From a virus (taxonomy: Duplodnaviria > Caudoviricetes): a DNA stretch of 64,000 nucleotides. Under the pieces are notes generated by a model. The model was not told the DNA's origin. It saw only the letters and a program-made list of their open reading frames with translations, and did no database searches. The stretch lies in the IMG/VR virus record IMGVR_UViG_3300043480_000021, positions 5,422 through 69,421 of that record. One strand, 5' to 3'. Both the position numbers and the translations under genes were made by a program. Each line of letters begins with the position of its first letter. The first letter of the stretch is position 1. Of this stretch, positions 6,001 to 20,968 are shown one piece after another.

Positions 6001-9000
6001 GTGCCCGTCGTGATATACAGCTGGATGGCGTTAGTCTTCGTTCCGACGCGGTAGATGCGGCCTTCGGTCTGGATCGCGGCGATCGGGCGCACAGGAAGCC
6101 CGAGGTTGATCAATACGCGCTGGTATTGACCGGTAGTATCGTGCAGCGATATCCCTTCTCGGCCGGCGTCTGACTGCGAGAGCAGGATCTTCGTGCTGCC
6201 GGCATCGTCGTTAAAATCGGCGACGGCCTCGCGCCGCTTCATTTTCGGTACCGTACCGTTGAACATTTTGACCTGGTCGCCGAACTCCGCGGGAAAAACC
6301 TCGTTAGGCGCGACGAGGGTCGTCAGGTCCAGGCCGACCAGGTCAGGGCGTGCGGCGGTGAATTTCGCGTACACGTCGCCCACGTCGTAGATCTCGCCGT
6401 CGAGCCTGATCACGCCGTTAAAATCAGGACCGAAGTCGAAGGGATGAATAGCCTCGTTTTTGTTGTAATCGTGGAAAACCACTACCTTTCGCCCGGCCTC
6501 GAGTTGCGCCTTTACGATCGGGATCACGCTCCGCGCGTTAATGGCCTCGAGGGTGAAACGTTTTGCGAGGTAATTGAAACGCTTGCGGGCGTACTCGTGA
6601 AGATTCCAGAAGCGGCGCTGCTCGATCGTTTCGAGGGCCTTATTCTGGCTCTGGTCCCAGATGTACTGGAAGCCCTCGTCGATCTTCATTCCGATCGCGG
6701 ATTCCGCAAGAATGAATTTCCTCGAGTAGTCGACGTCGATGTTGAGGCGCCGGCCGCGCAGAGCTCCCGCCTTCTGAAGCATGGAATTAAACTGCTGCTC
6801 CATCAGCTCGGTATTTACATCGGCGTCCGGTTTCGTGAGCTTGTTATAGCGCATCCGGTAACCGAAGTGCTGCATAAAGAAACGGTCCTTCGAGCTCCCG
6901 GAGTTGTAGCCGCCGGTGTCGACGTCCGGACCGTAAGAAAAGAGGTAGCCCTCGGCGTATTCGATGTTTTTCTCGTAAGCGAAAGGCGTCGCGGACAGGA
7001 AGACCACCTTCGGCCGCGCTTCAGTTTCGCGCCGGCGATCGTATTCCGCGTAGGCTGCGTCCTGGAGAGGCTGGAGCGCATCGAGCAATCGCTTATATTT
7101 TGCGTTGGCCTCGTCGTATTTGCCTTTGTCCGCTTCCGAATACGTCCGGCGGTACTGACGACTCGCTTTCTCCTTCTCTTCCCGGGCTGCCTCAAGCTGC
7201 TCGAGCTCCGCGGCATTCTTGACGGCGTGATAGTTCCACTGGCCGCGATCGTGAAGCGCGACGGCGCGAAGCATCTGCACGGCGCCGGTCTCGTCGCCGT
7301 CCTTGTTTTGGGAAAGATAATGAGACTCGTCGAAGATGATCGCGTCCCAGACCCGCTCGATAAGGGTGTTATTCGCGCGGAAATTCGCGTAGGTGGTAAG
7401 AACGGTACCGTCGCGGCCGTGGTCGACCGTGCTTTCAAGGCGCTTAGCATTGATGAGGACGTTTTCCGCGCTGGTCCGCCAATCCTCGAGGATCTTGTCG
7501 TTCGGCGCGATGATCAGTATCGACTTTTTGCCCTGCCGGTGGAGGCGTTTTGCTATGCCGAGCCCGGTGTAGGTTTTTCCGGTACCGGTGCCGTTCGTGA
7601 AAAGAACGCCCTCGCCCTCTTCGAGCCGGTTTTCGGCGAAAAGAACGTCTTCGTGTTGTTCGGGAAGTAAAAAGGGAAGCGTTGCCCGGATGTTATCCAG
7701 GTCGCGTAAGACGAGCTCGTGAGATTCGGCCTCTTCCTGAAGCCGGCGCTTTTCGCCTAGTTCAGAGTTGCGTTGAGCAGCTGCCCTAACTGCGTCGCTT
7801 GGTCGATATTCAAAAAGGAGTCCCGAGTCGCTATCTGGACCGCCTCGTCCGTCGTCAAAATCTCCGGAAGTACTTGCCTGATCGCCGGGTGGTGATTCGC
7901 GTACCTCGATATCGCCACGCGTTCCGCCAGGAGCGGCGCCAGCTCCAGGTACGATATCGCTACCTTCGGATCCACTCCCTTGTTCTCCAGCTCGGTCGCT
8001 GCTCGTTCGTGCGCTATCGCCATCTCGTCCGCTTTCAGCGTTAGGAAGTTCCTGCCGAAATTCGTCGCCAGGCCGTTCGCTGCTATCTCGTGCCAGATCT
8101 TCGGTGCTACTTGCAACATCTCCGTACTCCTTGGCCGCGTCGAGCTGGTCCAGCCTTTTGTTGAAAAAGCCTTCAAACCGGCCCGCGCCAATTTCATCAT
8201 AGACCTCTCTTTGCGCGCTTGTAAACTCCGTTGCGCCAAAGAGACCGCCCTGCAGGATGAATTCTTCGAACGGCATCCCGCGCATTTCGGCCTCACCTAT
8301 CTCCTCGATCGCGGCCACAACGTCGCCTACAAGATCGAGCGCCGGCCGTCCTTTTGCTTCGATATCACCTCGTCTGGCCAGGACTATGCCTGCGGCCCTC
8401 GAGGCGTGGGGTGTCGACGGGTTTGCCTTGCGCTCTATCAACAGCCGTCCGAGTTCCGGACCGAAGACGTTCATATTGCGCTCGCGCTCGGTATCGGTCG
8501 CGTTTTGCTTCAGCCGGGCGATCTGCTCACGCTTGCCGGCGTCATTATCCGGCGTCTCTCCGATCGCGGCCGGTCCGCCCACGGCGAACAGGCCTTCCTG
8601 GTCGAGACCGCCCATGTCGAAAAGCGTGTCTCCGGCGGGCGGGAGCGTCTGCGTGGCCTGGTCCGCCGGAGCTGCAGGAATTTCGTCCACCGTGGCGGGA
8701 GCGTCTTCCGTAGCAATTTCGGGCTTTTCGGCGGTTGCCTGGACTACTTTATCGGTTTCGGCCGAAAACTGGTCCAGTGCCTTGTCGATCGCCGCGATAT
8801 CATTCATCCCCGCGGTGAAGTGCGAGGTTTCCGGATCGAACTGGACGGCCAGGTACCAGGATTTGAGATAAGGGATCACGCCGGCGCCGAGGTCCTCGAT
8901 CATCGCCTTGGCATAGTCGGCGAAAAGACGCGCGCCGGCTTCGATGTGGTAGGCTGCGAGCTCGATCCCTGCTTTCGCTACATCCGGATCCAGACCGGCG

Positions 9001-12000
9001 TTGTGCTGGGTGCCTTTAAGCTTTTCACGGAGCAGCTTCCGCGCGGCCTCGGCTTTGTCCTCGGTGACGAAGGTGTTTTTCTTGCCGTATTCGGTTTTCT
9101 GTTTTTTCGCCTTCTTTTCCTGCTCGAAGTAGGCCCGCTGGTCGATCGCAAGCCCGCCCATGCCGGAGAGATCGAGATCGCCGTCCTCGGCCTGCGCGTC
9201 TTTCGCCGCCTTGGCCATTTCCTGACGACCTTCTTCCGTGCGGAAAGGGCTGATCGGCTCGTCGACCGTTTTCGCTTCCTCTACGAGGCGGTCGATCTCG
9301 TTCCGGAGCGTGAGACCGAAAGACTCGGCAGCCATCTCGTCGTAAAACGTCTGGGCGCGTTCGCTGAGAGCGCTACGCGGGGCAACTGTCCACCAGGCAT
9401 AAATGCCATTCCAGAGGTCCTCAAGCAGCGTAATGGCTTCTTCGCGATCGATCCCGGCAAGCTTGTCTGCCTGATTTACGGCCTGCTTGAGTGCGAGGCG
9501 CATAGCTCCGGATTGTGCGAACTGGTCCATGCCCGACGCGCGGCGGCCGCCCCAATCGTCGACAAGAGAAGCCTCGCGGGATTCCGGGAAGAGCTCCGGC
9601 AACGTTTTTGCGGTTTTTACGTCTTCGTCGACGAGGTCAGAGAAAAGAGCGGGCGCGGCCTCGGCTTCCTTCGCGGGCTCCCCGATCCTTCCTGGCGCTG
9701 CGGCCTCTTTCTGGGGTTCAGCTACATTTTCGCCGAAGTCGAAGCTGATATCTTCTTCAGCATCGGACTCGTTTTCTTCGTCGGAAAAGTCGAAAGAGAG
9801 GTCTACTCCGTCGCTTTCGGGTTCGGTTTCGTCGAGGATTTCTTCGCTATCGGGGTTGAAGATGCTTTCCGGGCCATCTTTGCGGCCAGCATGTGGCCGG
9901 CCATCGAGAGCATCGGCACTGCTTTCTTCAGGCGGTCCAGCCTCGCCCCGCCGGGCGACGTGGGTAAGGAGTTCATTGATGATCGATCGGGTTTCTTCTT
10001 CACTGAGTCCATAATTATATCCTAGTTTGACCAAATCATCCTGTTTTTCTTCCGAGATCTCGCCGTCGAGCTCCAGGTCCTCAAAGATCGGCCAGGCTTT
10101 GTCGTCGGTCAGGAAAAGCTCTATCTCGTATGTTTTCTTAAATTCGGCGCGGTTCATACCCGCGAGAATGGTCTCCAATTGCTCTTGCTGAATTTCCTCG
10201 CGCTGGTGATCATCGACGAGCTCCGCGGCGTCCTTTTCGCCGCCTTCTTCAGTAACGAAGTACCGGCGGATGCCGCGGGCGTCCTCTTCGATCAGGTCGA
10301 GGAATACGTTCGGATCGCGGTCCTGAACATCCGGCCACAGGTCGCGCAGGTATCCCATTTCCCAAGCATGCTCGGCCATGTGCTCGGCGTTGTACCTCGA
10401 GTTTCGATTGACGAGGCCGATCTTTCCGAGCTCCTTTTGCGAAATGCGCTCGAGCTCTCCGCCCAGGCGTCCGCGTTTAGCGTCGTCCGTGTCCGGACGG
10501 ATACCACCGGAGGATTGAACGAACTGCCAAAGTGATTTTGCCTTTCCGGGCCTTCCACTCGGCCGCGCGGGCTTACGAGCAGCAATACGCTCGTTATTGG
10601 CGTTGAAGGCTTCACTCTCGAAACTGCCGGCGATCTCGCCGGAGACGTTGCCAGCGGGCGCATGCGTGATTTTGACGCGGGTTTTTCCGGTCACCTCATA
10701 CTCGTAGCCTTTCCAGCGCAGCCGGGCCCGATTTTGCTTCTTCCGGAGGATGCTGGCGGTCGACCGCGAAACGTCGACGCTAACAGCACTCTCTAAAACC
10801 GAGGGTTTTACCTTTTTCGGCGATTTACGGAAGTATTCCCGCTTCGAGATCTTGTCTCTGACGATACGGTCGAGATCGCCGGGCTGAACATTCTCGAGAT
10901 CCTGCGCGTGATAGCCGAGTTTGCGGAGGATCCGGGTCCGCAAAGACTTGAGAGGTTTGGCGGCGTGAGTTTTTTCGCGCAGGTCGACCTCGGCGATCCG
11001 TTCGCCTTTTACCGGCAGCTCGAAGCGTTCGAAGACATTCCGCGCGCCGGTATCCGTTTGGACGGGCTTTTGAGAAGTAACCAGGTTGGAGACGAATTTC
11101 TCCTTCGGCGATTCCGGCATCGAGGGTTTCGCTTCCTGGATCCAGCGCATCGTGTCCTCAGCCGTCTTTTCCTCTTCACGCTTCTTGACGGCGTCGGAGA
11201 CCGGCATAACGACCTGCGAGACGGGCTCATCCGGAAAATGAGCTGCATCCTGTGCTTTCTGCTCCTCGATATTCGCGGGATCCGTAATGACGCTCGACGA
11301 AAGCTCCCGGCCGGTCTGATCCTCGGTTCGGACGACGTCTCCGGTTGCTGTGTCGCCGGTATGATCCTCAACCTTTCCGAGCATGTCGGAATAGCCCTTT
11401 TCCTGTACGTGCGCGGCGATCTCCTCGGGAGAGTTAAGACCGAGCTGCTCCTTTGCCTTTTCGGTGTTTACAAAGAGGACGCCCTCGTCCACAGGGACCG
11501 GTATAAGTTTTTCCGCGCCGGGCCCGTTTATCAGCTCGCCCTGTCCGGATTCGGTAAGGAGGACGGCGGACCGCGGCGATTCGTCGATCAGAGTGCTTAC
11601 GATCTGCTTTTGGATAGTAAAGTCCGATTCCGGCGACGTGGGCGCGGGTCTGGCCTGTTCCGGCGCCTGGACCGGAGCTTCGGCGGAATTGTCGGCGCCG
11701 AGGATATCGTCGACAAGACTAACGCCGGAGGGATGCGCTTCAACAGGCGCGGATTCCGCGGCCGGCGCGGGTGTTTCTGGGGAGAGGGGAATAAGAATAT
11801 CCGGGCGGTCCTCGTCCTCGATCGGCTTCGCCTCGAGGATCTCCTCGTCGCGCGGGATAACAACGTCTCCGACCTTTTCTTTTGAGGGAACACTGATACC
11901 GGATTTTTCGGCAATATCTTTCGAGATAACGACCTGCCTCTGCTGGAGCGCTGCGAGCTCGCGCCGGAGCTTCCAGATCTGTTTAAGAACGCCGCGGTTA

Positions 12001-15000
12001 GCGGAGAGTCCTTTTTTCGGGTCTGCCTTATCTTGGAGCGCGGAGATCTCGGCCTGGACCTCCTCGATGCCGTTCCGGCTGTTCTCGTAAGACTCGATAA
12101 GCTCGCGGTTCTTGTCGGTGACCTTAACCTTCTTACCGAAAGCATAGATCTCGCCTTCGCCGAAATGCTCGATGATCACGCCGTTCGCTTGCTCTTCCTC
12201 GATCGCGCGTTTGATCCTGCGCCGGTTACGGACGGTATTGAGAACCGTAACCGCCACGGACACGAGAGGCGCGGATATGCCGGCGACGAGCATGTTGTCG
12301 GCGAGGTCCTTGTCGGCCTTTCGGTCAGGATCGTAAACGAGATTTGCGACGATGTTCCCGGAAAACGTCTGCGTGCCTTCCTGGACGAGCTCTTCGGGCG
12401 CTTCCTTTCTCGCCTCCCTCCATGCTTCCCGGAAGAGTTTCCGCCACACGGTACCGCCGGCGCCTTTATTGAGACGGACCAGCGCTTCGCCGATACCCGC
12501 GATCTCGGTAATACCGAGCGGAGCGGTCAAGAGACCGGCCAGTTGTGCCTTATCTTCCGACGCGCCGAACTCGATCGCCTCTTTGTACGTATCGCCGCCC
12601 ATCTGCAGGGAAGACAGGAGGGCGATCATCAGCTTTGGGGATTTCGAGAAGCCGCCCGGCATCATTCCGAGCGAGGACCCCACGCCCTGCGGAAGTTTGC
12701 CGGCGAGAAACTCCCGCTCCATGTCTTCGTCGGTCGGCAGCCATTCGTTTAAGAATTGCTCGCCCCTTTCGGCGATCCCGAATGTCGCATAGTCCGAAAC
12801 CTTTTTGCGCGGGTTATCGGCGCCGTAAAGGACGTCGTCGATCGATTTCGAAGCCAAGGCTATGCCTCGATAGGTCGACGCGATCGCGACGGACAGAGCG
12901 GACTTGACGGTACCGAAAATGATGCCCTGGGCGCTGCCCTTGATGTAATCGCCCCAGCTCATTTGAGCGACCCGGCTTTTTCGGGCCTCCTCGGCCAGCT
13001 CGAGCTCGCGCATTTTGCGGTTGCGGTTGGTGATCGAACCGTAGAGCTCAAGTTCGCGCCGCATGTAGTTGGCCGTATTCTGAGCGGCCGCGGCGTCGGT
13101 TGGTCGCAGATCGAGCTCCTGAAAGCCCGTCGCGCGGGAGGCCTGCACCTTTTGATTTCCGCCCTGGATCTGTGCCCGGCGCTCCGATTGGAGCTTCCGG
13201 TACGCTTCGGCTTCCTTTTCGGCGACTGCGCGGGGAAGCCAGCCAACCTTGGCCTTTGCCTGCAGGGAGGCTAGATACGCATCGCCCTCTTGTTTCTGAA
13301 ATTCCTCGAGATATCGGCCGAAGTCTTTTCGCGAAACGCCGCCTTTGACCTTGGCCATCTCGAGCTCGTCGTAGCGCCGATCGGCGAGGGCCGAAGGATC
13401 GAAGTCGTTTTCCTTGAACTGCGCGAGATCGCGCGGCGTGAATTCCTGGCCCGAGGCGATAATGCCGAGAGCGTAATCCTCGAGCATTTTTCGGCGTTTG
13501 GATGAAAAAGCCTGAAGATCCTTAAGATCGCCGCGGGTGATATCGAACGGCTCTGTAGCTTTGTCGCCTTTGGCAAAATAATCCTCATGGCTGTAATTCT
13601 TGCCCGTATCGAGTTTGCGAAAACCAGTAGCTTGGTAAAAAGCCCGGATATCCGACTCGGGCACCTCCCGGAAGAGCTCCGGATCGCCCGCAACAGCGCC
13701 TTTCAGCGTAATCGCCACTTGATGGCTTAAAAGCAATTTAGCCGCTTCGTCGGTCGTTGAATTCTTTAAACGCTCCGGGATTAGTTCGATTCTCGTCTCA
13801 TGGGTGGCCAGCGATGCCAGAGACTCCGGACGAATATCCTTGGTTACAGGGTTTGCGATATACGTCTCGCCCTGATCATCCATCACGCGAATCTCGCCTT
13901 GCTTCAACCCGGCCGTATCCGGGGTGTGGGTAAGAACGCGCCCGTCCGCCGTTTTGATCTGATCGGTCCGCTCGAGGTCCGTTGCTTGTTTTTGCACCTC
14001 ATCTGAGGGGGAATTTCGAGCAACGCGCGGCACGCCGGCGCCCGGGCCGCGCCGTTTTGCCTGTTTCGGCCGGTTGGCGATCGCTACGTCGAGCTCGGCG
14101 AAGAGAGCATTATCGTCGGGTGTGAAAACACCCGTTTGTTTCCCATCCTTTACCGCCTGGTGCCCGTCGATGAATTTGCGGCGCAGCTCCTCCGAATCAG
14201 TGAATCCGTACGTCTTCAGATAACTCTGGTAGGAGGCTTTTAACGCGGGATCGTCCGGAAGCACAGATTTCGGCTTCGTCTTTCCAAGTACCCACGCCGG
14301 CAACTCGCGACGTATCTCAAACTTTTCGCCGTTCGGTTTAGCGAGATACGTTTTGCCGGTCTTCGAGTTTTTTAGCCTTATAAATCCTGGCGGCACATCC
14401 TTATCGTCGGTCTGCACTACCTCGCTGCCGTCTTTCTCCATGAAGCGCAGCTTTGGGTTTTCTTCGGCAATCTTTGTACCATCTACGATAAAATTAACGG
14501 GATTGCCGGCGACCTCTCGCGTGTACCTAGTACCCGCCTTGACGCCCTTTTGCCCGTCCGGGCCATCGGCGCGGATATACTCGGCCTTATTACCGTCCTG
14601 GATGCGCTTTGGCGGGCCGGTAGGCACAAGACGGACCTTTTCGCCTTCGATCTGACCTTCAAGAAGATCGCCGTCGGCATCCTTGAAGTAATGCTTGCCG
14701 CCCGCGGTACCGACATACTCGTGATCACCGAGCTTGCCGGATCGTTCGAAGTCGAACGTAGGGACCTTGTTTCGCTCGAAAGTGGTAGGGATCGGCGCGC
14801 TGAAAGGGGTACTTTCGGGGGAATTAGGAGTTTGATTTTTTTGATTGGTGAGGGCTGTGCCCGGTAGGGCTACGGAAGCAGTCCGCCCGTTTCCGGACTG
14901 CGGACCGCCGGGCGTAATTTGGCGTGACGCGCCGATGGTTTTCTTTTGCGCGTTCAACTGCACGAGCTGTTCCGTGATCTTCCGGATGGCGTCGGAGATA

Positions 15001-15866
15001 CGGCGCCGCTCAACTCGGTCCTTTGTCTTTTTCAGCTGAATCTGGAGATCGTCGCGCTGTTTTGTGAGATTTACGATCGGGTCGACCTCCGGAGGATCCT
15101 CCGGGGCGACATTTGCGCCGGGCATGGTCTCCGGGATCCTCTCAGGTACCAGGATCTCGGGAACCTCACCCGCGGGCTGTCCCGGTTCCGGCTGGCCGCC
15201 TAGCACATCGCCTACAAGGTCGCTGCCGGTCGCGGGTCCATCTTGCGGACGAGCTCCGGCCATAACATCCTGAATCAGGTCGTTGGCCGACGCGATTCCG
15301 AACGGTATGCCCGAAGGCATCGGTCGCGCGGGCGGGCGGGCGAACCCGCCAGTTTTCTCGACGTATGACCGGTACGTTTCTTTAAGATCCGGCCGGTAAG
15401 AATAAAGCCTGATATTTGGGACCTCGCCGGTCCGTCGATAGTAACCGATGATGTTGTTTCTCGCCCCAACATAGCGCAGCCGCCGCACGACGGGATCAAC
15501 AGGATCGCCGGCGACAAACTCACGCAGTCCCATTTGCCAGTTATCCTGCTCGTTGAACGGGTCCAGGCCTTCGGCTTCATAAGGTTTCGCCGTGCCGGGC
15601 ATTATTTGAGAGCCGCCGATCGCCCGGTCGCCGTTTGCGGTTGGTATGCCGCGCTTGACGATATTTGTGCCCGGCCAATAATGAGCGCGTCCGCTTTCGA
15701 TTTTTATGAGGTTGTAATAATCCTCAACATCATCGTCGGAGATATTGACCTTCCGACGACGCGCCTCCTGGGCCGCCTGGTAGAGCTTCGCCCTCACACC
15801 GTTATCGCTTTTTGCTGGTGCTTTCTTGCTTTTGGTGCCGAGTAGATCGTCGATTATGTCGGACAT
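1..15866 (-). CDS. Giant DarB-like / large polyvalent virion-ejected protein, at least 5288 aa, 3'-truncated by the window edge (lytic transglycosylase + SF2 helicase + N6-adenine MTase + further domains)
   Basis: ATG at 15866 (MSDIIDDLLGTKSKK), 8 nt after the upstream stop. My manual translation stays in one frame to position 3 (...IRVMNRIAKEKGLDLNKIW) with no stop seen; frame re-checked at 10040, 3797 and 59. The missing stop explains its absence from the ORF track. Confidence 0.9.
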   Translation of the reverse strand, partial: MSDIIDDLLGTKSKKAPAKSDNGVRAKLYQAAQEARRRKVNISDDDVEDYYNLIKIESGRAHYWPGTNIVKRGIPTANGDRAIGGSQIMPGTAKPYEAEGLDPFNEQDNWQMGLREFVAGDPVDPVVRRLRYVGARNNIIGYYRRTGEVPNIRLYSYRPDLKETYRSYVEKTGGFARPPARPMPSGIPFGIASANDLIQDVMAGARPQDGPATGSDLVGDVLGGQPEPGQPAGEVPEILVPERIPETMPGANVAPEDPPEVDPIVNLTKQRDDLQIQLKKTKDRVERRRISDAIRKITEQLVQLNAQKKTIGASRQITPGGPQSGNGRTASVALPGTALTNQKNQTPNSPESTPFSAPIPTTFERNKVPTFDFERSGKLGDHEYVGTAGGKHYFKDADGDLLEGQIEGEKVRLVPTGPPKRIQDGNKAEYIRADGPDGQKGVKAGTRYTREVAGNPVNFIVDGTKIAEENPKLRFMEKDGSEVVQTDDKDVPPGFIRLKNSKTGKTYLAKPNGEKFEIRRELPAWVLGKTKPKSVLPDDPALKASYQSYLKTYGFTDSEELRRKFIDGHQAVKDGKQTGVFTPDDNALFAELDVAIANRPKQAKRRGPGAGVPRVARNSPSDEVQKQATDLERTDQIKTADGRVLTHTPDTAGLKQGEIRVMDDQGETYIANPVTKDIRPESLASLATHETRIELIPERLKNSTTDEAAKLLLSHQVAITLKGAVAGDPELFREVPESDIRAFYQATGFRKLDTGKNYSHEDYFAKGDKATEPFDITRGDLKDLQAFSSKRRKMLEDYALGIIASGQEFTPRDLAQFKENDFDPSALADRRYDELEMAKVKGGVSRKDFGRYLEEFQKQEGDAYLASLQAKAKVGWLPRAVAEKEAEAYRKLQSERRAQIQGGNQKVQASRATGFQELDLRPTDAAAAQNTANYMRRELELYGSITNRNRKMRELELAEEARKSRVAQMSWGDYIKGSAQGIIFGTVKSALSVAIASTYRGIALASKSIDDVLYGADNPRKKVSDYATFGIAERGEQFLNEWLPTDEDMEREFLAGKLPQGVGSSLGMMPGGFSKSPKLMIALLSSLQMGGDTYKEAIEFGASEDKAQLAGLLTAPLGITEIAGIGEALVRLNKGAGGTVWRKLFREAWREARKEAPEELVQEGTQTFSGNIVANLVYDPDRKADKDLADNMLVAGISAPLVSVAVTVLNTVRNRRRIKRAIEEEQANGVIIEHFGEGEIYAFGKKVKVTDKNRELIESYENSRNGIEEVQAEISALQDKADPKKGLSANRGVLKQIWKLRRELAALQQRQVVISKDIAEKSGISVPSKEKVGDVVIPRDEEILEAKPIEDEDRPDILIPLSPETPAPAAESAPVEAHPSGVSLVDDILGADNSAEAPVQAPEQARPAPTSPESDFTIQKQIVSTLIDESPRSAVLLTESGQGELINGPGAEKLIPVPVDEGVLFVNTEKAKEQLGLNSPEEIAAHVQEKGYSDMLGKVEDHTGDTATGDVVRTEDQTGRELSSSVITDPANIEEQKAQDAAHFPDEPVSQVVMPVSDAVKKREEEKTAEDTMRWIQEAKPSMPESPKEKFVSNLVTSQKPVQTDTGARNVFERFELPVKGERIAEVDLREKTHAAKPLKSLRTRILRKLGYHAQDLENVQPGDLDRIVRDKISKREYFRKSPKKVKPSVLESAVSVDVSRSTASILRKKQNRARLRWKGYEYEVTGKTRVKITHAPAGNVSGEIAGSFESEAFNANNERIAARKPARPSGRPGKAKSLWQFVQSSGGIRPDTDDAKRGRLGGELERISQKELGKIGLVNRNSRYNAEHMAEHAWEMGYLRDLWPDVQDRDPNVFLDLIEEDARGIRRYFVTEEGGEKDAAELVDDHQREEIQQEQLETILAGMNRAEFKKTYEIELFLTDDKAWPIFEDLELDGEISEEKQDDLVKLGYNYGLSEEETRSIINELLTHVARRGEAGPPEESSADALDGRPHAGRKDGPESIFNPDSEEILDETEPESDGVDLSFDFSDEENESDAEEDISFDFGENVAEPQKEAAAPGRIGEPAKEAEAAPALFSDLVDEDVKTAKTLPELFPESREASLVDDWGGRRASGMDQFAQSGAMRLALKQAVNQADKLAGIDREEAITLLEDLWNGIYAWWTVAPRSALSERAQTFYDEMAAESFGLTLRNEIDRLVEEAKTVDEPISPFRTEEGRQEMAKAAKDAQAEDGDLDLSGMGGLAIDQRAYFEQEKKAKKQKTEYGKKNTFVTEDKAEAARKLLREKLKGTQHNAGLDPDVAKAGIELAAYHIEAGARLFADYAKAMIEDLGAGVIPYLKSWYLAVQFDPETSHFTAGMNDIAAIDKALDQFSAETDKVVQATAEKPEIATEDAPATVDEIPAAPADQATQTLPPAGDTLFDMGGLDQEGLFAVGGPAAIGETPDNDAGKREQIARLKQNATDTERERNMNVFGPELGRLLIERKANPSTPHASRAAGIVLARRGDIEAKGRPALDLVGDVVAAIEEIGEAEMRGMPFEEFILQGGLFGATEFTSAQREVYDEIGAGRFEGFFNKRLDQLDAAKEYGDVASSTEDLARDSSERPGDEFRQELPNAESGRDGDSARTSSDRAGEQGSGSEGSDIVPGAGAAPGGTRGDIEVRESPPGDQASTSGDFDDGRGGPDSDSGLLFEYRPSDAVRAAAQRNSELGEKRRLQEEAESHELVLRDLDNIRATLPFLLPEQHEDVLFAENRLEEGEGVLFTNGTGTGKTYTGLGIAKRLHRQGKKSILIIAPNDKILEDWRTSAENVLINAKRLESTVDHGRDGTVLTTYANFRANNTLIERVWDAIIFDESHYLSQNKDGDETGAVQMLRAVALHDRGQWNYHAVKNAAELEQLEAAREEKEKASRQYRRTYSEADKGKYDEANAKYKRLLDALQPLQDAAYAEYDRRRETEARPKVVFLSATPFAYEKNIEYAEGYLFSYGPDVDTGGYNSGSSKDRFFMQHFGYRMRYNKLTKPDADVNTELMEQQFNSMLQKAGALRGRRLNIDVDYSRKFILAESAIGMKIDEGFQYIWDQSQNKALETIEQRRFWNLHEYARKRFNYLAKRFTLEAINARSVIPIVKAQLEAGRKVVVFHDYNKNEAIHPFDFGPDFNGVIRLDGEIYDVGDVYAKFTAARPDLVGLDLTTLVAPNEVFPAEFGDQVKMFNGTVPKMKRREAVADFNDDAGSTKILLSQSDAGREGISLHDTTGQYQRVLINLGLPVRPIAAIQTEGRIYRVGTKTNAIQLYITTGTNFEQYAFGTQISQRASTAENLALGEEARALRQAFIDGYQEAVTDYAPSENEGLGGKEGDRALAAAMTDYQKAIGFYFGKGKKTSRNKSAEGKDYYATPEPIGLKMVEWADQRLAEHTLEPSAGHGAIARWFRPDNRKTVIEPSQELAAQLSLVTDGRLERDIFENHHTGANKYHTIVMNPPFGSGGKTAVDHVAKAAKHLHNQGRIVALIPDGPAADKQLEKFLKSEDAKDLYKIGDIHLPGVAFKRAATQVRTHIIILEKQFFPEHVKQLPSGGGLDLSHFDDIKELFDYLEHVEVEPRIVTSEAGPVSITPSPAAAAMEGAEGAPAQTAGVGSDMFDAAEFDHTTNGNRIFVAKPKELLDKATFNTLRYTMAPRYGGYYSKFNKGGAVAGFHFSTAAERDAFIAEASMPTGMKAAILPGPAPTFYSQVEKVITDKMPKRAPADQVRGILKPEYGIKKEELDWLGIDDFLASKDAFSKDEVLDFVRSNNVQVEEVIKGGTFRTGDIFIKEWNSESTERNGRKGKLHYFQADITRPHPVYEEHGQKIRVGSIFEDGKIFEATSAQGVKQFHTFDEAKRYLNDGAEVRFMDEGLGNPFEASPTKYSDRVLPGGENYRELLLTLPTSESALTSDQLTRYQKLDAMDTGDVSIAQRQEWEMLANRKNLNSANDRIFQSKHFDEPNILAHIRFNDRTDADGKKTLFIEEIQSDWHQAGREQGYSPKGPQKQYFLRKPDGDIGQDFASKEEGEQFFDKNPHAGSLDSFINNETGVLDAPFKKSWHELAFKRALRYAAENGYGAVAWTTGETQNDRYDLSTQVKSLSYTYSDGQYGIKGVSLRGNPFDIGVYDEAGLAAAVGKELAEKIKTDREGGLLTKEYTGDNLKLEGSGMKGFYDKIIPNFVDKYTRKWDAKVTPAEINTNQYGVVQSGTGDFYIVGNDSKPIGEKSAARPYKIEENAEAAAKRMNTQKAHAVEITPEMQISVMQGQPLFATRLPGQKSYDEIVGASLGDLIAPMRVELDGPKSYRIKLNAEAAEFLRRVYQEIRFQQTKTQAFEVPFYALFDILKDTKSNREFTAKVIRFINDQAKEAQRLGYTTNEVLNIKNVADAIEIAAENGAGGFIFYVDDRFLPEEEFHRAGYMIFNAAISEDRFADNLNHHTAVEKYKQIYGAYLDQFPASVRDAVAWDETAAILARGGMEELGVSEDEAVEYLAGFFESIAKRLEEKGINVEQALKNYDAVREQHIREQIRRTTEEYRSRREKAGRPGRDSEQGGQKPQSPPGEDPGSPPGGAGGERFNLGPPVLKGPGIASLPETLRAHGYESDRKTYDIRSHDDVRRAVAEMADYANVAEIIYQKLLSGKDLSSVDTGLAIELVQRLQREARADLKAGKKDFYEAKKGQAAQIADILDEKLREAGRFIEAVKLMEPFSPDFIVETAKRRMQRFDPDAEMTPDLEAELLKMAEELEESKNAVDELTRKYGRLDRRFKKYRELDRVERQKRRRARRAKNRISRAKESIIKKLAEKESDIIDKFRDRFNPPTDMKAANMTAMKAADVTTAQNVGLTDEELNELAEFGALELARGMIKLEPEMFTLRLQEIFGAGIRPFADQIHARSYAKYKELLREENKKNALERLKSANPDLNDAEIDQLYTERKEKQKEARKIANAHLKQARAADPEATGKKSRAARRGSTSAGTSGTDTDPALTPLQQAIIDEAEKQDIDPILRETSLMLANPKTRDYNGIARVLNDRHGLTKEEADRMIGKGLAFVRDVKRVRAEKVQEARAEKEAELTDEARAEIDAAHARHRQAENELRKKLDALSRKPVGYMPRLRRIWKGLLISSYKTAFNNAISGGFTIGVRTATDTIDLFLRKAATKGKIKLGEDGLDPKLKFRDILALQAWRALRSRRMAEGILDRYAYQYEMMFGRYNADIEADVKHDQVDGNKALAKVDKGADAAFRGAEWFVDKVNIFNMVQEFHVRSIEFIRVMNRIAKEKGLDLNKIW
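5180..5740 (-). other. N6-adenine DNA methyltransferase domain of the giant protein
   Basis: DYYATPEPIG, SAM-binding LEPSAGHG (about 5625-5650) and catalytic IVMNPPF (about 5455-5475), in gamma-class order. Confidence 0.85.
5880..7700 (-). other. SF2 helicase domain (Strawberry-notch-like) of the giant protein
   Basis: Walker A FTNGTGTGKT (about 7575-7600), Walker B IIFDESH (about 7320-7340), motif III LSATP (about 6985-7000), and C-terminal AGREGISLH...QTEGRIYR (about 6045-6170). Confidence 0.85.
7757..8119 (-). CDS. Nested (overprinted, +1 frame) 120-aa protein inside the giant ORF
   Basis: SD AAGGAG at 8127-8132, 7 nt before ATG 8119; TAG at 7757. The product MLQVAPKIWHEIAANGLATNFGRNFLTLKADEMAIAHERAATELENKG... 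has globular helical composition. The giant-ORF frame over the same bases is a G/S/D/R-rich disordered linker. Confidence 0.7.
   Translation of the reverse strand: MLQVAPKIWHEIAANGLATNFGRNFLTLKADEMAIAHERAATELENKGVDPKVAISYLELAPLLAERVAISRYANHHPAIRQVLPEILTTDEAVQIATRDSFLNIDQATQLGQLLNATLN
15330..15866 (-). other. N-terminal lytic transglycosylase (SLT/lysozyme-like) domain of the giant protein
   Basis: Catalytic-Glu motif LIKIESG (about 15693-15710), followed by GGSQIMPGTA and LDPFNEQDNWQMGLREF, matching the SLT E-S, GxxQ and helix-N pattern. Boundaries approximate. Confidence 0.75.
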
Positions 15867-15874
15867 GATAAAAG

Positions 15875-17017
15875 CTACTGGGTAGGAATGTACCCCCACG
15901 TTTGCATCGCATAGGCCTCGAGGGCTGTCCGCGTCTCTTCCGGGGTCGGCATCCGGAAGTTGGTCCGTGAGAAATTAGCTTCCCATTGCGAGCGATACGT
16001 CGACATTTGCTGCCGGGCCTGCTGGTACTGAGTCGCGGTGATCTGTTTCGTCTGCCGGTTATTTTGCTGCTGCTGGTTAAACTGCGTCGACCACTGCGAA
16101 AGAACGAGCGGCGCGAGCTGCTTCGGAGCTATCTTCAGCGGTACGCCGCCGATCTTCGCGTCGATCGGCACTTCCGACGCGTCGACGGGCATACCGGGCG
16201 AGGGTTCCCACTCTTTGGTGTCCGGGTTCTGGGTGAAGAACGCGCCGGCCTGCTCCTTCGTTTCGCGCCTTCTCGCATCGAAGTCCGAGAGCTCGATATC
16301 GGCATCGGCGAGCTGCTGGTCAAAATCCGCGTTCGCGCCCTTCTTGTAAAAATTCTGCTTCGCGATCTGGCCGAGGAGCTGCTGCCGGAGCGTAAGTTTG
16401 CGTTTCTCCTCGTCGCCTTTAAGCTTTTCTTCATCCCGCGCCTTTCGATCGGCGTCGTCGCGGGTCATATTTTCCATTTGCGACTGCTTGTAGGCGCTTT
16501 GGAAATACTGGTCCTCTTCCTTATCGAGCTGGCCGAGGTCCTTGCGGTTCGTTTCCTGCTTACGAAGCCGCGCATCTTCCTCGTCCCACTTGTCGTTGAT
16601 CATGCCGCCGGCGAACGCCCCGGGCGCTCTCGACAGACGCCCGAAAAACTCTTCCCAGTTTTTGACGACGCCCAACTGCGGGCTGTAGGCGTCCGCCAAG
16701 GCGCGGAGACCGGCTTCGGCGCCGCTCCTTAAGCGCGAGTCTTCGGATTTTTCCGTTTTATGAGAAAGCTGCTCCCTTTCTTCCTCGAGCTTCCTGCGAC
16801 GATCGGCATAAGGCCCGACATAGGGCACGGACGCGCCTTTCGCGATCGCTTCGGGCGAAGGGTTGGCATTAAAGTGCTGATCGCCGAGATCCGCCGGCTG
16901 TTGTGGACGAAAAACGGTAGGGACCAGCGTGTTACCGCCGCGGCCGCTAAGCGTGGCAAAATCTTCCTCGGCATCGCGCCGGCGTACGGTCGGTACTCGT
17001 GATTGCTGATTTCTCAT
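15875..17017 (-). CDS. Putative internal virion/ejection protein (380 aa)
   Basis: Q/E/K-rich helical protein directly upstream of the giant ejection gene. Function inferred from position only. Confidence 0.5.
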   Translation of the reverse strand: MRNQQSRVPTVRRRDAEEDFATLSGRGGNTLVPTVFRPQQPADLGDQHFNANPSPEAIAKGASVPYVGPYADRRRKLEEEREQLSHKTEKSEDSRLRSGAEAGLRALADAYSPQLGVVKNWEEFFGRLSRAPGAFAGGMINDKWDEEDARLRKQETNRKDLGQLDKEEDQYFQSAYKQSQMENMTRDDADRKARDEEKLKGDEEKRKLTLRQQLLGQIAKQNFYKKGANADFDQQLADADIELSDFDARRRETKEQAGAFFTQNPDTKEWEPSPGMPVDASEVPIDAKIGGVPLKIAPKQLAPLVLSQWSTQFNQQQQNNRQTKQITATQYQQARQQMSTYRSQWEANFSRTNFRMPTPEETRTALEAYAMQTWGYIPTQ

Positions 17018-17042: not shown

Positions 17043-17723
17043 ATGACTTATTTGCGACACGCCAACGGCGGAGGGAAAAAATTTGACGAGGCCGAGGCAG
17101 ATCCCGGTACGTTTCTTTCCCGTTCGTCCTCGATATCGGGCGAATCCGATCTATTCGAGGCCGTTGTAGATAACACCGAGGAAGACAAGATCGTCGACTC
17201 GTTTATCCACCAGGCGCAAATTATCAACTCTTCCGTTCTCTCGACCATCGTCGCCGGCAAGGTCCGTGTTGAAAACTGCCTTGTGGCCTGTAAATCGATA
17301 ACCGGCCACGTACGCGCGACGAATTCCATCCTCCAGGGGGAAACTCGCCTTTTCGGTTCAGCGGAATCCCACAATTCCGCATTTCAAAATCTGTCCGTCG
17401 GCGGTACCGCGAAGATCGTCGACTGGAACAAGCTTTTCAAAACCAACGGTACCGGGCCCCATATCTTTGACGGCCAGTTCGGCCGGATAACGTCGGGTAC
17501 ATGGACGAGACCGCCGCGGATTATCCGTTTTGAGGACCTCGAGGTCACTGTAACCGAAAGCACCGAGGGGCGCGCCTTTGTCGGTTGTATCGAAAAACCG
17601 ATGAAGCGCTGGATCCAGGGCGGTCATTCGTACGGCGCCGCCCGCGGCTGGTCACCGGAACAGGTCGACCGTCTGGCCGATATTTTCAAAGAATGGTTAC
17701 TTGCCTCTCAGATACGGTACTAA
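17043..17723 (+). CDS. Hypothetical protein with beta-helix-like (hexapeptide-type) repeats; the only convincing plus-strand gene (moron-like)
   Basis: 226 aa with periodic I/V-x-x-S/A pattern (IVDSFIHQAQIINSSVLSTIVAGKVRVENCLV). It fills a gap with no credible minus-strand gene. Confidence 0.65.
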   Translation: MTYLRHANGGGKKFDEAEADPGTFLSRSSSISGESDLFEAVVDNTEEDKIVDSFIHQAQIINSSVLSTIVAGKVRVENCLVACKSITGHVRATNSILQGETRLFGSAESHNSAFQNLSVGGTAKIVDWNKLFKTNGTGPHIFDGQFGRITSGTWTRPPRIIRFEDLEVTVTESTEGRAFVGCIEKPMKRWIQGGHSYGAARGWSPEQVDRLADIFKEWLLASQIRY

Positions 17724-18044
17724 GAAGACCAGGAACCCGATCACCGCGATAGCCGTGCCCACGATCGCGTAAAACTCCTTCCTACTAAGAAAATCTCTCT
17801 CCCTGTCGGTCATGGCGCCGCGCCACTCGTTTGCGCTCTTTCGCCAGTTTTCGCCTTGTTTTTCGAGCTTGTCGGCGGCAAGGGTGGACGCCGTGAGCGT
17901 CACGTCCGTTTTTCCCTCCTGGTCCTTGAAACGTTGGTCGATGTGCCCGTACAGGTCCTTGAAGCGCTGGTCAACGTTCATGCCGGCGTCCGTAAACCGC
18001 TGGTCAACATAGTCCCTCATTTGTACCGTTTCGGTTTTTGCCAT
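17697..18044 (-). CDS. Holin-like membrane protein (coiled coil + C-terminal TM)
   Basis: 115 aa ending FYAIVGTAIAVIGFLVFLVPYLRGK; last gene of the lysis cluster. Confidence 0.5.
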   Translation of the reverse strand: MAKTETVQMRDYVDQRFTDAGMNVDQRFKDLYGHIDQRFKDQEGKTDVTLTASTLAADKLEKQGENWRKSANEWRGAMTDRERDFLSRKEFYAIVGTAIAVIGFLVFLVPYLRGK

Positions 18045-18057
18045 CTTTCCCGGTCGT

Positions 18058-18729
18058 TTACGCGCCTTTCTCGATCTCAGCGATCATCCACATCTTCCCG
18101 ACCCATCCGAGAACGTTACCGAGCTCGTCTTTATTGCAATAGGCCTCGCACCTCACCGAGACCACCGATTCGTCAGGCCGGATAACACGAAAGCGGTCGC
18201 TGAAGTCTGTACCGTCGCGGACCGATGACATCCAGTTCTCGACGACGGCCTCCCGGTAGTGGCCATGTATCGCGTTGCGCCAGTTAAAGCCCGTGATCTG
18301 CTCTAATTTGCGGCCGGTCATCACCAGAAACGCGGTATTGGCCCAAAGGACCGCGCCTTTCATATTGGCCTCGAAAAATGCGTCCTCGTCGCATTGCATG
18401 ATCGCTCGCCTGGCGGCCGTCTCCGTGGCGACGTGCGCGCGGATGCTGTCGAGGCTGGATCGGAGCCAGGTAATCTCTTCGATAAGGGTTTTACCGCTCT
18501 CGACCTTCATTTGCGCTTCAAGCCGGGCAACGACGTTCGGAGCGTCAAGAAATCGACCGCACCAGCGCTGTGCGGCCTTTAAGCGCTTATGACAGAACTT
18601 CAGATAACCACCGATCGCGCCGAGTCCGCCGAGGAAAAGTAAAACATAGCCATAGTACTCGGCCAGGGTTGCTATCAGCTTCGGGGTCGTTTCGGGAGTT
18701 GGTTCCAACATAATGTCCTTTCCGCTCAT
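18058..18729 (-). CDS. Membrane-anchored PAS-domain protein
   Basis: N-terminal TM (YYGYVLLFLGGLGAIGGYL), coiled coil, then PAS signature FFEANMKGAVLWANTAFLVMTGRKLEQITGFNWRNAIH...FRVIRPDESVVSVRCEAYCNKDELGNVLGWVGKM. Start placed at MSGKD, just after the upstream stop. Confidence 0.8.
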   Translation of the reverse strand: MSGKDIMLEPTPETTPKLIATLAEYYGYVLLFLGGLGAIGGYLKFCHKRLKAAQRWCGRFLDAPNVVARLEAQMKVESGKTLIEEITWLRSSLDSIRAHVATETAARRAIMQCDEDAFFEANMKGAVLWANTAFLVMTGRKLEQITGFNWRNAIHGHYREAVVENWMSSVRDGTDFSDRFRVIRPDESVVSVRCEAYCNKDELGNVLGWVGKMWMIAEIEKGA

Positions 18730-18734
18730 AAAAC

Positions 18735-19319
18735 TTAATCCGCGGCCCACGCCGGAATGACCGCCTCGGGCCGATAGTTAGACCCGAGCAGCGCCTTCAG
18801 GCCGGCGCCGGCGAGAACGCCCAGCACCATCTCGGCCGCCCTCTTGATCCCGCTCAGGATCTTCTGGAAAATGTTCTTTTTCGGCTTCATGAGCTGCAGC
18901 TGCATCCACGCGATAAAGTCCTGCTGGATCTTGATCATCCCCTGCAGGAGAAGCTCGAGCTGCTTATGCGCGTCGATCTCCTGGTTCTTGATGGCGAGGA
19001 CACGGTCGAAGCTTCCTATCAGCACGGTCGCGACGGCGCGCTCGGCACGGCTTGCGCCCTGGGCTTCGGCGGCTTTAACCGCAGCTTCCCGAAGGGCTAA
19101 TACCTCGTCGAAAGCCTTATTAGAATCGTCGACATAGGTCTGGTCGACCACGACCGGATTGTTAACATCCGGCGGAACCGGGATAAGCCTTGCACCGGGC
19201 TCGGTTTGACCGGCGGAGGTTTGAATTAGCGTAATTAGCATTACGTACAGCATCAGCATAGCGCCGAGCTGCGTCCGCAGCCTCGTTCTTCGTGTCGGTT
19301 TCAGTTTTTGCAGCTTCAT
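18735..19319 (-). CDS. Secreted coiled-coil protein overlapping the spanin-like gene (o-spanin analogue?)
   Basis: Basic n-region plus hydrophobic h-region signal peptide, coiled coil, hydrophobic C-terminal segment LGVLAGAGLKALLG. It overlaps the upstream gene by 158 nt in another frame, as in Rz/Rz1 pairs. Confidence 0.5.
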   Translation of the reverse strand: MKLQKLKPTRRTRLRTQLGAMLMLYVMLITLIQTSAGQTEPGARLIPVPPDVNNPVVVDQTYVDDSNKAFDEVLALREAAVKAAEAQGASRAERAVATVLIGSFDRVLAIKNQEIDAHKQLELLLQGMIKIQQDFIAWMQLQLMKPKKNIFQKILSGIKRAAEMVLGVLAGAGLKALLGSNYRPEAVIPAWAAD

Positions 19320-19593
19320 GGTCTTTCCTGTTCTCCTCGAGGATCGCGCTCTCTGCCGCGTCCTCTTTCTCCAGCTCGTGGATCACTCCCTCCTGGGTTT
19401 CAATGGCCTGCCCTTGCGCGTTCACATTCGCCTGGAACTCGCTCATCTTTTTGTTGGTGAAAAATCCGTCTATCCCGCCAAAGATGGCGCCCAAGACAGC
19501 GCAGATGATGACGAAAACAAGGACCACGACGGCGACTCCGATCCCGATCTGCCAACCACCGGATAACTTTTTAAATCTCGTGGCCAATTTCAT
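19162..19593 (-). CDS. Rz-like inner-membrane spanin candidate
   Basis: N-terminal TM (WQIGIGVAVVVLVFVIICAVLGAIF), long periplasmic coiled coil, two C-terminal Cys; directly downstream of the endolysin candidate. Confidence 0.6.
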   Translation of the reverse strand: MKLATRFKKLSGGWQIGIGVAVVVLVFVIICAVLGAIFGGIDGFFTNKKMSEFQANVNAQGQAIETQEGVIHELEKEDAAESAILEENRKDHEAAKTETDTKNEAADAARRYADAVRNANYANSNLRRSNRARCKAYPGSAGC

Positions 19594-19608: not shown

Positions 19609-20928
19609 TTAACCAGCTTCGGGCTCGAACGCTTCTTGGTTCGGATTTATAGGAGCCAAAGCGGCCGCGACTGCCGCCCTACGCTCGCCGTTGCCAAACA
19701 CTTCGGGCATCGCCGTAGGTATGAGGTTGTGGGTCGTCGGGTTTTGCCATGAGTTCTGGCACATAGCTATGATCTCGAGGACCTTTTGACGCTGGGTGAT
19801 GATCAGGTAGATGACCAGCGACGCGGTGACGATCGTTCCGACGCCCAGGAGTATCTGAAGATGCGGAGGCAAATTCATTACCCAGGTTATCGCCGTCAGG
19901 AGCATTCCCCCGCCCGGGATCGCCGACAGCCACTTCAATCTGCCGAGCTGCGGAAGAAACACCGGTACGTTCTTTTGCTCGAACGTGCTGGTCGTCGCCG
20001 TCATAGTCTTTTCAACGGTTCCGTCGTCTTTTTCGGTTACGGACTCCGTAAACTCGCCAAGCGGCGCGTCCTCGCCGGGTTCGCCACCCACTCCCATGGG
20101 AGCGGCCTCGAAGGTTGCCGCGTGAGGATCTTCGTCGCCAATGATGCCGGCGTTCAGAATGTCGTCTTCGTCGTCGAGCTCGGCGATCGCGGCCTGAACC
20201 GCGGCTACCGATAACGGCTTGCGCTCGTCGACGAACGAAACGGCTGCCTTGACCTTCGGAACGTTGACGAAATGCTGCGCCTGGTACCGCATATCCGCGG
20301 CGGTGTCGAATTCGTTCTCCTCGAGTTCGAGGATGTGATTGAACTCGGCCTGCGTCAGGAGAATGTACGGGATATTTCCAACGCCAACATTGAACTGCTT
20401 CGTCGCCCTGCGCTGTATACCGAGAGGTACGTCCACACCGAGGGCGTCGCCGACAAAGGTAATAAATTCCGCGAATTGTTTGCGCGGGCACGTCTGGCAG
20501 CCGCGGCTTCCCGTTGTGCGATCGCCGCCGGCGTGGATATTGATCGCCGTTCCCATCGACTCGTAGAGCTGTCCGGACCTAATCGATTTCCGGTAGCATT
20601 TCAGCTGTTGCGCGGGATTATTCGGCCGAAGGGCAACGTAACGCTTCCCGTTCTCGCTGATGTGGTGATAGGACATTTTGAAGAAATGAACGCCGGTCCG
20701 GAGGATCGCCACTTCGGTCGCGCCGACGGCAAACATGCTCGGATCCGCATTCCAGTTAAAAGCCTTGATCGTGTCCGCCTTTCGGCTATACCAAAAGCCT
20801 TCGTCGTCGAACCAGTTAATGCCGGCGTTCCTGATCGCGAGGCCGATGCACTCGTAGTTTTTCCAATCGTCTCCGAAAAAGTAGCGGTAAATTTTTTCTG
20901 CCGATGAACGGCGTAAAGCTGGTCTCAA
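19609..20928 (-). CDS. Endolysin candidate: YkuD/L,D-transpeptidase-like catalytic domain + acidic linker + two C-terminal TM helices
   Basis: Motif INIHAGGDRTTGSRGCQT (H...S-x-G-C) near 20490-20545. Hydrophobic segments LSAIPGGGMLLTAITWVM and LQILLGVGTIVTASLVIYLII. First gene of the lysis cluster. Confidence 0.6.
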   Translation of the reverse strand: MRPALRRSSAEKIYRYFFGDDWKNYECIGLAIRNAGINWFDDEGFWYSRKADTIKAFNWNADPSMFAVGATEVAILRTGVHFFKMSYHHISENGKRYVALRPNNPAQQLKCYRKSIRSGQLYESMGTAINIHAGGDRTTGSRGCQTCPRKQFAEFITFVGDALGVDVPLGIQRRATKQFNVGVGNIPYILLTQAEFNHILELEENEFDTAADMRYQAQHFVNVPKVKAAVSFVDERKPLSVAAVQAAIAELDDEDDILNAGIIGDEDPHAATFEAAPMGVGGEPGEDAPLGEFTESVTEKDDGTVEKTMTATTSTFEQKNVPVFLPQLGRLKWLSAIPGGGMLLTAITWVMNLPPHLQILLGVGTIVTASLVIYLIITQRQKVLEIIAMCQNSWQNPTTHNLIPTAMPEVFGNGERRAAVAAALAPINPNQEAFEPEAG

Positions 20929-20968
20929 TGTCTAAAACCTCCAAAACTAACTGCCTTTAACGCTTCAT

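Follow-up and report, generated by a model that had tools for sequence, protein, structure and literature searches.

The window analyzed here – 64,000 nucleotides spanning positions 5,422 to 69,421 of IMG/VR virus record IMGVR_UViG_3300043480_000021 (Duplodnaviria; Caudoviricetes) – carries on its minus strand a gene for a 439-amino acid protein that is probably a phage endolysin. On this reading, an N-terminal Cys/His hydrolase domain with a YkuD fold would be tethered to the inner face of the cytoplasmic membrane by a C-terminal two-helix hairpin. An endolysin had also been proposed in a preliminary description of this DNA, and independent genomic lines support that role: swapping of the membrane module between catalytic domains, fusion of an N-domain relative to GH108, a position within a lysis cassette, and an adjoining Rz-like gene. 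Our analysis shows a predicted fold, a conserved motif, a module that is swapped between enzymes, and the genes nearby. We infer that the enzyme is a hydrolase and not a transpeptidase, and likewise which bond it would cut, how it would lie in the membrane, and how it would get to the cell wall; peptidoglycan degradation itself is suggested by the fold, by fusions, and by the swapping of domains. The gene and its parts are as follows.

19609..20928, minus strand: candidate endolysin gene, 439 amino acids plus stop (from the list of open reading frames, ORFs, and full-length homologues)
20938..20942, minus strand: GGAGG ribosome-binding site, 9 nucleotides ahead of the TTG start at 20928
20254..20928, minus strand: predicted YkuD-fold catalytic domain, residues 1-225 (a family without a Pfam model; distant relatives that stand alone belong to phrog_3000, function unknown)
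20491..20535, minus strand: presumed catalytic His/Cys motif, H132-A-G-G-D-R-T-T-G-S141-R-G143-C144-Q-T146 (from conserved columns and hhalign)
19978..20253, minus strand: acidic, largely disordered linker, residues 226-317 (from charge and the predicted local distance difference test, pLDDT)
19612..19977, minus strand: C-terminal membrane module, residues 318-439, made up of a strand ahead of the membrane, a first transmembrane (TM) segment (TM1), a loop, a second (TM2) with a long helix, an HNLIPT strand, and a tail
19876..19944, minus strand: TM1, residues 329-351, weakly hydrophobic and Gly-rich, with a composition like that of signal-anchor-release (SAR) helices (from hydropathy and a helix at 329-350)
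19795..19866, minus strand: TM2, residues 355-378, strongly hydrophobic (Kyte-Doolittle up to 2.52; helix 355-394)

The ORF lies where the preliminary description placed it, and the MRP... start that follows its ribosome-binding site is common to all homologues in the alignment. A word-indexed search with the 439-amino acid protein returned 13 relatives that align with nearly its full extent at 39-55% identity, and an exhaustive HMMER search returned 103 cluster representatives. Between 14 and 25 homologues are full length, depending on the search (E down to 8e-149). Because these come mostly from metagenome-assembled genomes of Acidobacteriota, Pyrinomonadaceae among them, the phage host is suggested to be a member of that phylum, an uncultured soil bacterium. 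IMG/VR lists the record as a provirus that is ~87% complete. The whole protein matched nothing in Pfam (at E<=0.1), PHROGs, or the PDB, and tblastn against 50,697 GenBank phage records gave zero matches; a PDB profile search returned matches to the low-complexity linker only.

The fold of the N-terminal domain emerged from structure prediction and an exhaustive fold search. AlphaFold2 modeled residues 1-235 confidently from an 83-sequence alignment (pLDDT 94.3; predicted template modeling score 0.90), and the model is a YkuD beta-sandwich. This agrees with the YkuD fold and Cys/His motif read from the letters in the preliminary description, which would have given up the idea had another fold been predicted. 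The closest structures are the carboxypeptidases Csd6, Pgp2, and Bd1075, transpeptidases, and the tether-cutting enzyme DpaA. Phage proteins in BFVD share the fold as well, one of them named ‘Lysin’.

Consistent with a Cys/His active site, six columns (N60, P63, H88, H132, S141, and C144) are invariant across the alignment of 83 N-domain relatives, and six more (D62, N130, T139, G143, Q145, and T146) are nearly so. Many of these relatives are only 26-35% identical, so the H132/S141/C144 pattern is not a product of chance. The motif had been described earlier as H-x10-S-x-G-C; the motif is present, but its spacing is H132-x8-S141-x-G143-C144, or H-x11-C. For comparison we used seven Pfam-scoring YkuD genes from four bacterial genomes. 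In hhalign, INIH132AGGDRTTGSRGC144QT falls on the ...IH......GC... motif of these proteins, five of which share the H-x11-C spacing; the motif stretch alone aligns confidently (P ~1e-3, probability ~21%).

Sequence models of YkuD do not reach this family. None of the 83 relatives matches Pfam YkuD (PF03734) at E<=1, and per-member Pfam scans found no YkuD, DUF2778, or other peptidase family. Since the fold matches and the motif alignment arise without any Pfam match, the model places the N-domain in the YkuD fold, with the His/Cys site retained, as a family of its own at the sequence level. H132 and C144 are the presumed catalytic pair. A zinc site formed by H88, H132, C144, and D62 was also considered, but the fold matches favor a Cys/His peptidase.

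We observed that the C-terminal part of the protein also occurs behind other enzymes. Eleven cluster representatives match the 439-amino acid protein only at residues ~285-430, and the parts ahead of this shared module include VanY/Peptidase_M15_4 with or without PG_binding_1 (P0027, P0028, and P0033), GH46 (P0029 and P0103), and the PF11860 muramidase (P0031). Three of the module-bearing proteins belong to PHROGs ‘endolysin’ families (P0028 in phrog_2649, P0031 in phrog_1224, and P0034 in phrog_181). Identity to the swapped-domain proteins is 33-39% within the module, and conservation reaches well past the hydrophobic helices. In all, the module is common to at least five different catalytic domain types. 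At one locus (L046:3391-4498) a Peptidase_M15_4 gene runs to 4050, while the module continues from 4001 in a different frame; the cause is a sequencing error or a lysin gene that is split or frameshifted.

Stand-alone copies of the module were sought as well. None was found by single-sequence search, and none of five short proteins from a profile search was convincing: P0030 is cut off at a contig end; P0115 begins 38 nucleotides from one, inside TM1, and is probably cut; P0117 includes PF11860; P0116 is in a different frame from an M15 gene whose end it overlaps, and represents a split or frameshifted fusion; and P0114 sits on a 1.5-kb contig. An internal start that would yield a free module was also rejected, the sole in-frame Met nearby (residue ~307) not being conserved. 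The module matches no holin family in Pfam or PHROGs, and a protein-atlas search for look-alikes gave only scores <0.9, to small hypothetical proteins.

Relatives of the N-domain likewise point to lysis. A metagenomic protein of 479 amino acids (P0070) fuses a phrog_3000-type relative to GH108 and PG_binding_3 (phrog_315, endolysin). Stand-alone relatives of ~190 amino acids lie amid small membrane proteins on phage contigs – a 52-amino acid lipoprotein ahead of the relative in L017, proteins with 3-4 TM segments after it in L027 and L031, and, upstream of it in L016, a member of phrog_2429, which PHROGs annotates as ‘involved in bacteriocin production or immunity’. We take phrog_2429 to be the BhlA/UviB holin-like group. 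CheckV estimates five phage records with stand-alone relatives to be 90-100% complete, and none of the five matches Phage_lysozyme, Amidase_2, SLT, Peptidase_M15_4, or Peptidase_M15_3. Nor do they match GH108 or GH19, though these are weaker negatives, as the controls for both gave no signal.

These observations bear on a non-lytic role in wall remodeling. The protein might be an L,D-transpeptidase, a carboxypeptidase, or a cutter of wall-to-outer-membrane tethers, put to use by a prophage to change the envelope of its host (superinfection exclusion being one possible purpose), or it might be an accessory to lysis. Its nearest structures are enzymes of just these kinds and the record is classed as a provirus. 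Nevertheless, the protein has no export signal, its N-domain is interchangeable with muramidase, M15, and GH46-like lysins ahead of the same module, and stand-alone N-domain relatives are the only lysin candidates found in the five near-complete phages. We therefore regard wall remodeling as very improbable.

Between the N-domain and the module lies the long acidic linker of the preliminary description. Its net charge is -15 across residues 226-330, and in the full-length model residues 228-313 are largely disordered, with pLDDT <50 over 228-239 and 255-295. The linker is ~90 residues long, and neither its sequence nor its length is kept among homologues in the alignment. The module that follows is modeled with far more confidence (10-residue block means of pLDDT 71-95 over ~311-430) and contains the two TM segments expected from the first description. 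One proves weak and the other strong, and both are confidently predicted helices. Segment 333-351 of TM1 has a Kyte-Doolittle value of 1.33, ~40% Gly/Ala/Ser/Thr, and the family consensus LLGLIPGGGF.STI. A composition rich in these four residues is typical of SAR helices. The strongly hydrophobic segment of TM2 is 357-378, and helix 355-394 runs on past it in the full-length model.

Strands at 320-325 (VPVFLP) and 401-406 (HNLIPT) flank the hairpin in the AlphaFold2 model, and a helix follows at 415-424. The most conserved non-membrane motifs of the module family coincide with the two strands (PKNIPAFIPRFGK and ADP..HNLIPT). Because both strands flank the hairpin and carry these motifs, the two are suggested to form a pair on the same face of the membrane. 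The tail was first described as short; it is present, but rather than a featureless remnant it is 61 amino acids with a conserved ...NP..HNLIPT motif.

Averaged over 18 proteins, the net charge is +1.9 ahead of TM1, -0.4 within the loop, and +0.8 behind TM2, and by the positive-inside rule both ends of the module are predicted to be cytoplasmic. The absence of an N-terminal signal, also noted in the preliminary description, holds – hydropathy shows the first hydrophobic segment at residue 333, and the folded domain includes a helix at residues 7-24 – and the protein accordingly lacks the N-terminal signal-anchor-release helix that defines SAR endolysins. With both ends predicted inside and no N-terminal signal, the enzyme domain would be made and held on the cytoplasmic face. 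The predicted hairpin is thus consistent with C-terminal tethering, as previously suggested.

The gene neighborhood provides further evidence of a role in lysis. Four genes downstream on the minus strand are relevant here.

19162..19593, minus strand: next gene downstream, Rz-like i-spanin candidate with an N-terminal TM segment and a coiled coil (phrog_214 Rz-like spanin, E 4.8e-7)
18735-19319, minus strand: 194-amino acid ORF in a different frame, overlapping the Rz-like gene at its end in the manner of Rz1
18058-18750, minus strand: membrane-anchored PAS-domain protein inside the lysis cassette (PAS_3, E 2.6e-12)
17697-18044, minus strand: 115-amino acid protein that has repeats of the DQRFKD type and, at its C-terminus, one TM helix (Phage_holin_2_4 weakly, E 0.069)

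As expected of an endolysin in a lysis cassette, this gene has its Rz-like neighbor, and relatives lie near genes for multi-TM or TM-coiled-coil proteins. A homologue of the Rz-like gene (E 2e-10 in a direct pairwise test) directly follows a GH46-module endolysin in L042. At three other loci, module-bearing endolysins are directly followed by proteins of 128-156 amino acids with 3-5 TM segments (L044:5361-5831, L046:4500-4886, and L047:325-789), and a TM-coiled-coil protein comes after these. The 128-156-amino acid proteins have no family match and are candidates for a new holin family. BLASTP synteny between the window and seven related loci identified no shared neighbors at E<1e-3. No other peptidoglycan-hydrolase Pfam domain was found in the 52 other ORFs of the window or in a giant ORF described below.

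The TM candidates of the window cassette – the 115-amino acid, PAS, and 194-amino acid proteins – all have a single TM segment. From its sequence, the 115-amino acid protein is possibly the holin or antiholin of the cassette. The 194-amino acid ORF has a signal-like N-terminal helix and a Gly-rich hydrophobic C-terminal helix; it contains no cysteine and hence no lipobox.

The lack of a typical small holin with 2-4 TM segments in this cassette favors a self-sufficient endolysin-holin fusion, in which the hairpin would oligomerize and make a lesion and the enzyme would pass through on its linker with no separate holin. The hairpin does resemble class II holins and pinholins in anatomy (a weak SAR-like TM1, a strong TM2, a charged tail, and both ends inside), and the conserved soluble flanks of the module suggest a specific function besides anchoring. 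M4Lys and Enc34, moreover, lyse E. coli alone and need their transmembrane domain (TMD) to do so, the TMD alone being bacteriostatic (PMC7143992, PMC8943055). However, the separate holin candidates in L044, L046, and L047 lower the odds of a pure fusion; the module, for its part, has neither a match to a holin family nor detectable homology to the M4Lys TMD, and no convincing stand-alone copy was found. We consider such a fusion possible, if rather unlikely. Since a 3-5-TM protein follows the lysin at those three loci, we favor a tethered enzyme with a separate breaching protein.

A different question is raised by the tail-fiber and tail-spike-like genes that directly precede the gene. A virion-associated or ejection lysin might open the wall during infection while its hairpin enters the host membrane and forms part of a conduit for DNA. 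Segments of very large phage proteins that the N-domain weakly matches in structure (BFVD, ranks 8-12) would fit such a role. Module-bearing relatives, however, lie between replication and terminase genes, by holin-like and spanin-like genes rather than structural genes, and here the Rz-like gene adjoins. Lysis cassettes are in any case common after tail genes, as in Enc34 (PMC8943055). A virion lysin thus seems very improbable.

We propose the following mechanism for a tethered endolysin. Without an export signal the enzyme would be made in the cytoplasm, and the C-terminal hairpin, with both ends inside, would anchor it at the inner face of the cytoplasmic membrane. At lysis time the membrane would be breached, probably by a separate holin-type protein of the cassette and possibly with help from the hairpin, and the ~90-residue flexible acidic linker would let the enzyme reach the wall. 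There, His132 would activate Cys144 for attack on an L,D bond of the peptidoglycan stem peptide. Candidates are L-Ala-D-Glu, meso-diaminopimelic acid (mDAP)-D-Ala in cross-linked donors, and mDAP-mDAP; cleavage of any of these would break cross-links. The Rz-like protein would finally handle the outer membrane. L,D-endopeptidase activity is on record for some YkuD enzymes (review, PMC12729407), and LD1,3-transpeptidases cleave L-Ala-D-Glu, the same bond as a phage endopeptidase, with endopeptidase turnover (PMC10864386) – making a lytic YkuD-fold enzyme chemically reasonable.

We also entertain, as a speculative proposal whose chances we rate as low, a broader role for the module. It could be a portable, self-contained device for crossing or breaching the membrane – a hairpin with a cytoplasmic beta-sheet clasp that gives any fused hydrolase access to the wall without Sec or a holin. 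Phages of Acidobacteriota and relatives would have joined it to five or more unrelated catalytic domains, among them a family of YkuD-fold L,D-endopeptidases not recognized before.

Among characterized systems, the closest architecture is that of Enc34 ORF39, M4Lys of Salmonella phage BSPM4, Siskin-type endolysins, and LysAP of Acidovorax phage AP1 (PMC8943055, PMC7143992, PMC8879335). Like the 439-amino acid protein, these place the catalytic domain first, have no signal peptide, and end in two hydrophobic helices, the first weak or amphipathic and the second strong, followed by basic residues. Their genes, too, lie in lysis cassettes behind tail genes, with spanin-like genes alongside. All three elements of that architecture – a catalytic domain, two C-terminal hydrophobic helices, and no N-terminal signal – were found here. 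However, their catalytic domains are all-helical and lysozyme-like (PHA02564), whereas ours is predicted to be a beta-rich YkuD fold, and the present protein differs further in its ~90-amino acid acidic linker, conserved strands on both flanks of the hairpin, and 60-amino acid tail. The Enc34 type is limited to Chivirus and related viruses according to its authors (PMC8943055). The present module is found on at least five catalytic domain types. We detected no homology to M4Lys in either the catalytic part or the TMD (a profile of full-length module bearers gave a probability of 0.5% over 13 columns).

SAR endolysins and class II holins or pinholins (S21 68) share with the module a weak Gly/Ala/Ser/Thr-rich helix beside a strong TM segment, predicted inside ends, and a charged C-terminal tail. 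Here, unlike in SAR endolysins, the hydrophobic helices are C-terminal to a predicted cytoplasmic part of 330 residues, so the SAR route of Sec export by an N-terminal anchor cannot apply.

We compared the N-domain with the YkuD-fold enzymes Csd6, Pgp2, and Bd1075, with LdtA, LdtMt2, and YcbB, with LdtGo (an LD1,3-transpeptidase), with DpaA, and with the type VI secretion system effector Tlde1a. Relative to these, the family has the additional invariant residues N60, P63, and H88, an N-x-N-x-D-P-S block, and C-Q-T after the cysteine. Unlike a secreted housekeeping enzyme, this protein is phage-encoded, predicted to be made in the cytoplasm, and found in a lysis context. YkuD is a rare catalytic domain of phage lysins, with 10 entries in PhaLP (PMC8310338), and one multi-domain gut-phage lysin with YkuD has been described (10.64898/2026.04.25.720813). 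The PhaLP entries are recognized by Pfam or CDD models; our family is not, and its stand-alone relatives are in phrog_3000.

Endolysins with a C-terminal TMD and phage lysins with YkuD domains are therefore already known. What is new is an unrecognized YkuD-fold family and a different, larger, widely swapped module, in phages of another phylum. Our literature search found no paper describing the N-domain family or the membrane module, and no described phage endolysin for Acidobacteriota, an abundant soil phylum; the gene offers a first handle on lysis by phages of that phylum. It also represents a catalytic lysin family with a putative Cys/His YkuD-type site that current libraries miss (no Pfam model; ‘unknown’ in phrog_3000). 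Should the family prove to be L,D-endopeptidases, known lysin chemistries would gain a distinct one that is possibly sensitive to carbapenems. The way in which C-terminal-TMD endolysins such as Enc34 and M4Lys gain access to the wall is an acknowledged open question, and a long, structured, conserved module swapped between many catalytic domains is a natural chimera experiment that supplies testable constructs.

Two further observations concern the genomes themselves. A phage with an M15-module endolysin also encodes the 7-deazaguanine DNA modification genes QueC, PTPS, and GTP cyclohydrolase I (L040:8862-11019). In the window, a single ORF of ~6,003 amino acids occupies positions 3-15899 of the minus strand and continues to record position 3309 (L048). 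Its first 2,650 amino acids have no Pfam match, and methyltransferase and ResIII/Helicase_C helicase domains lie in its C-terminal half. It has the look of a ‘polyvalent’ giant of the DarB type, possibly one that is injected.
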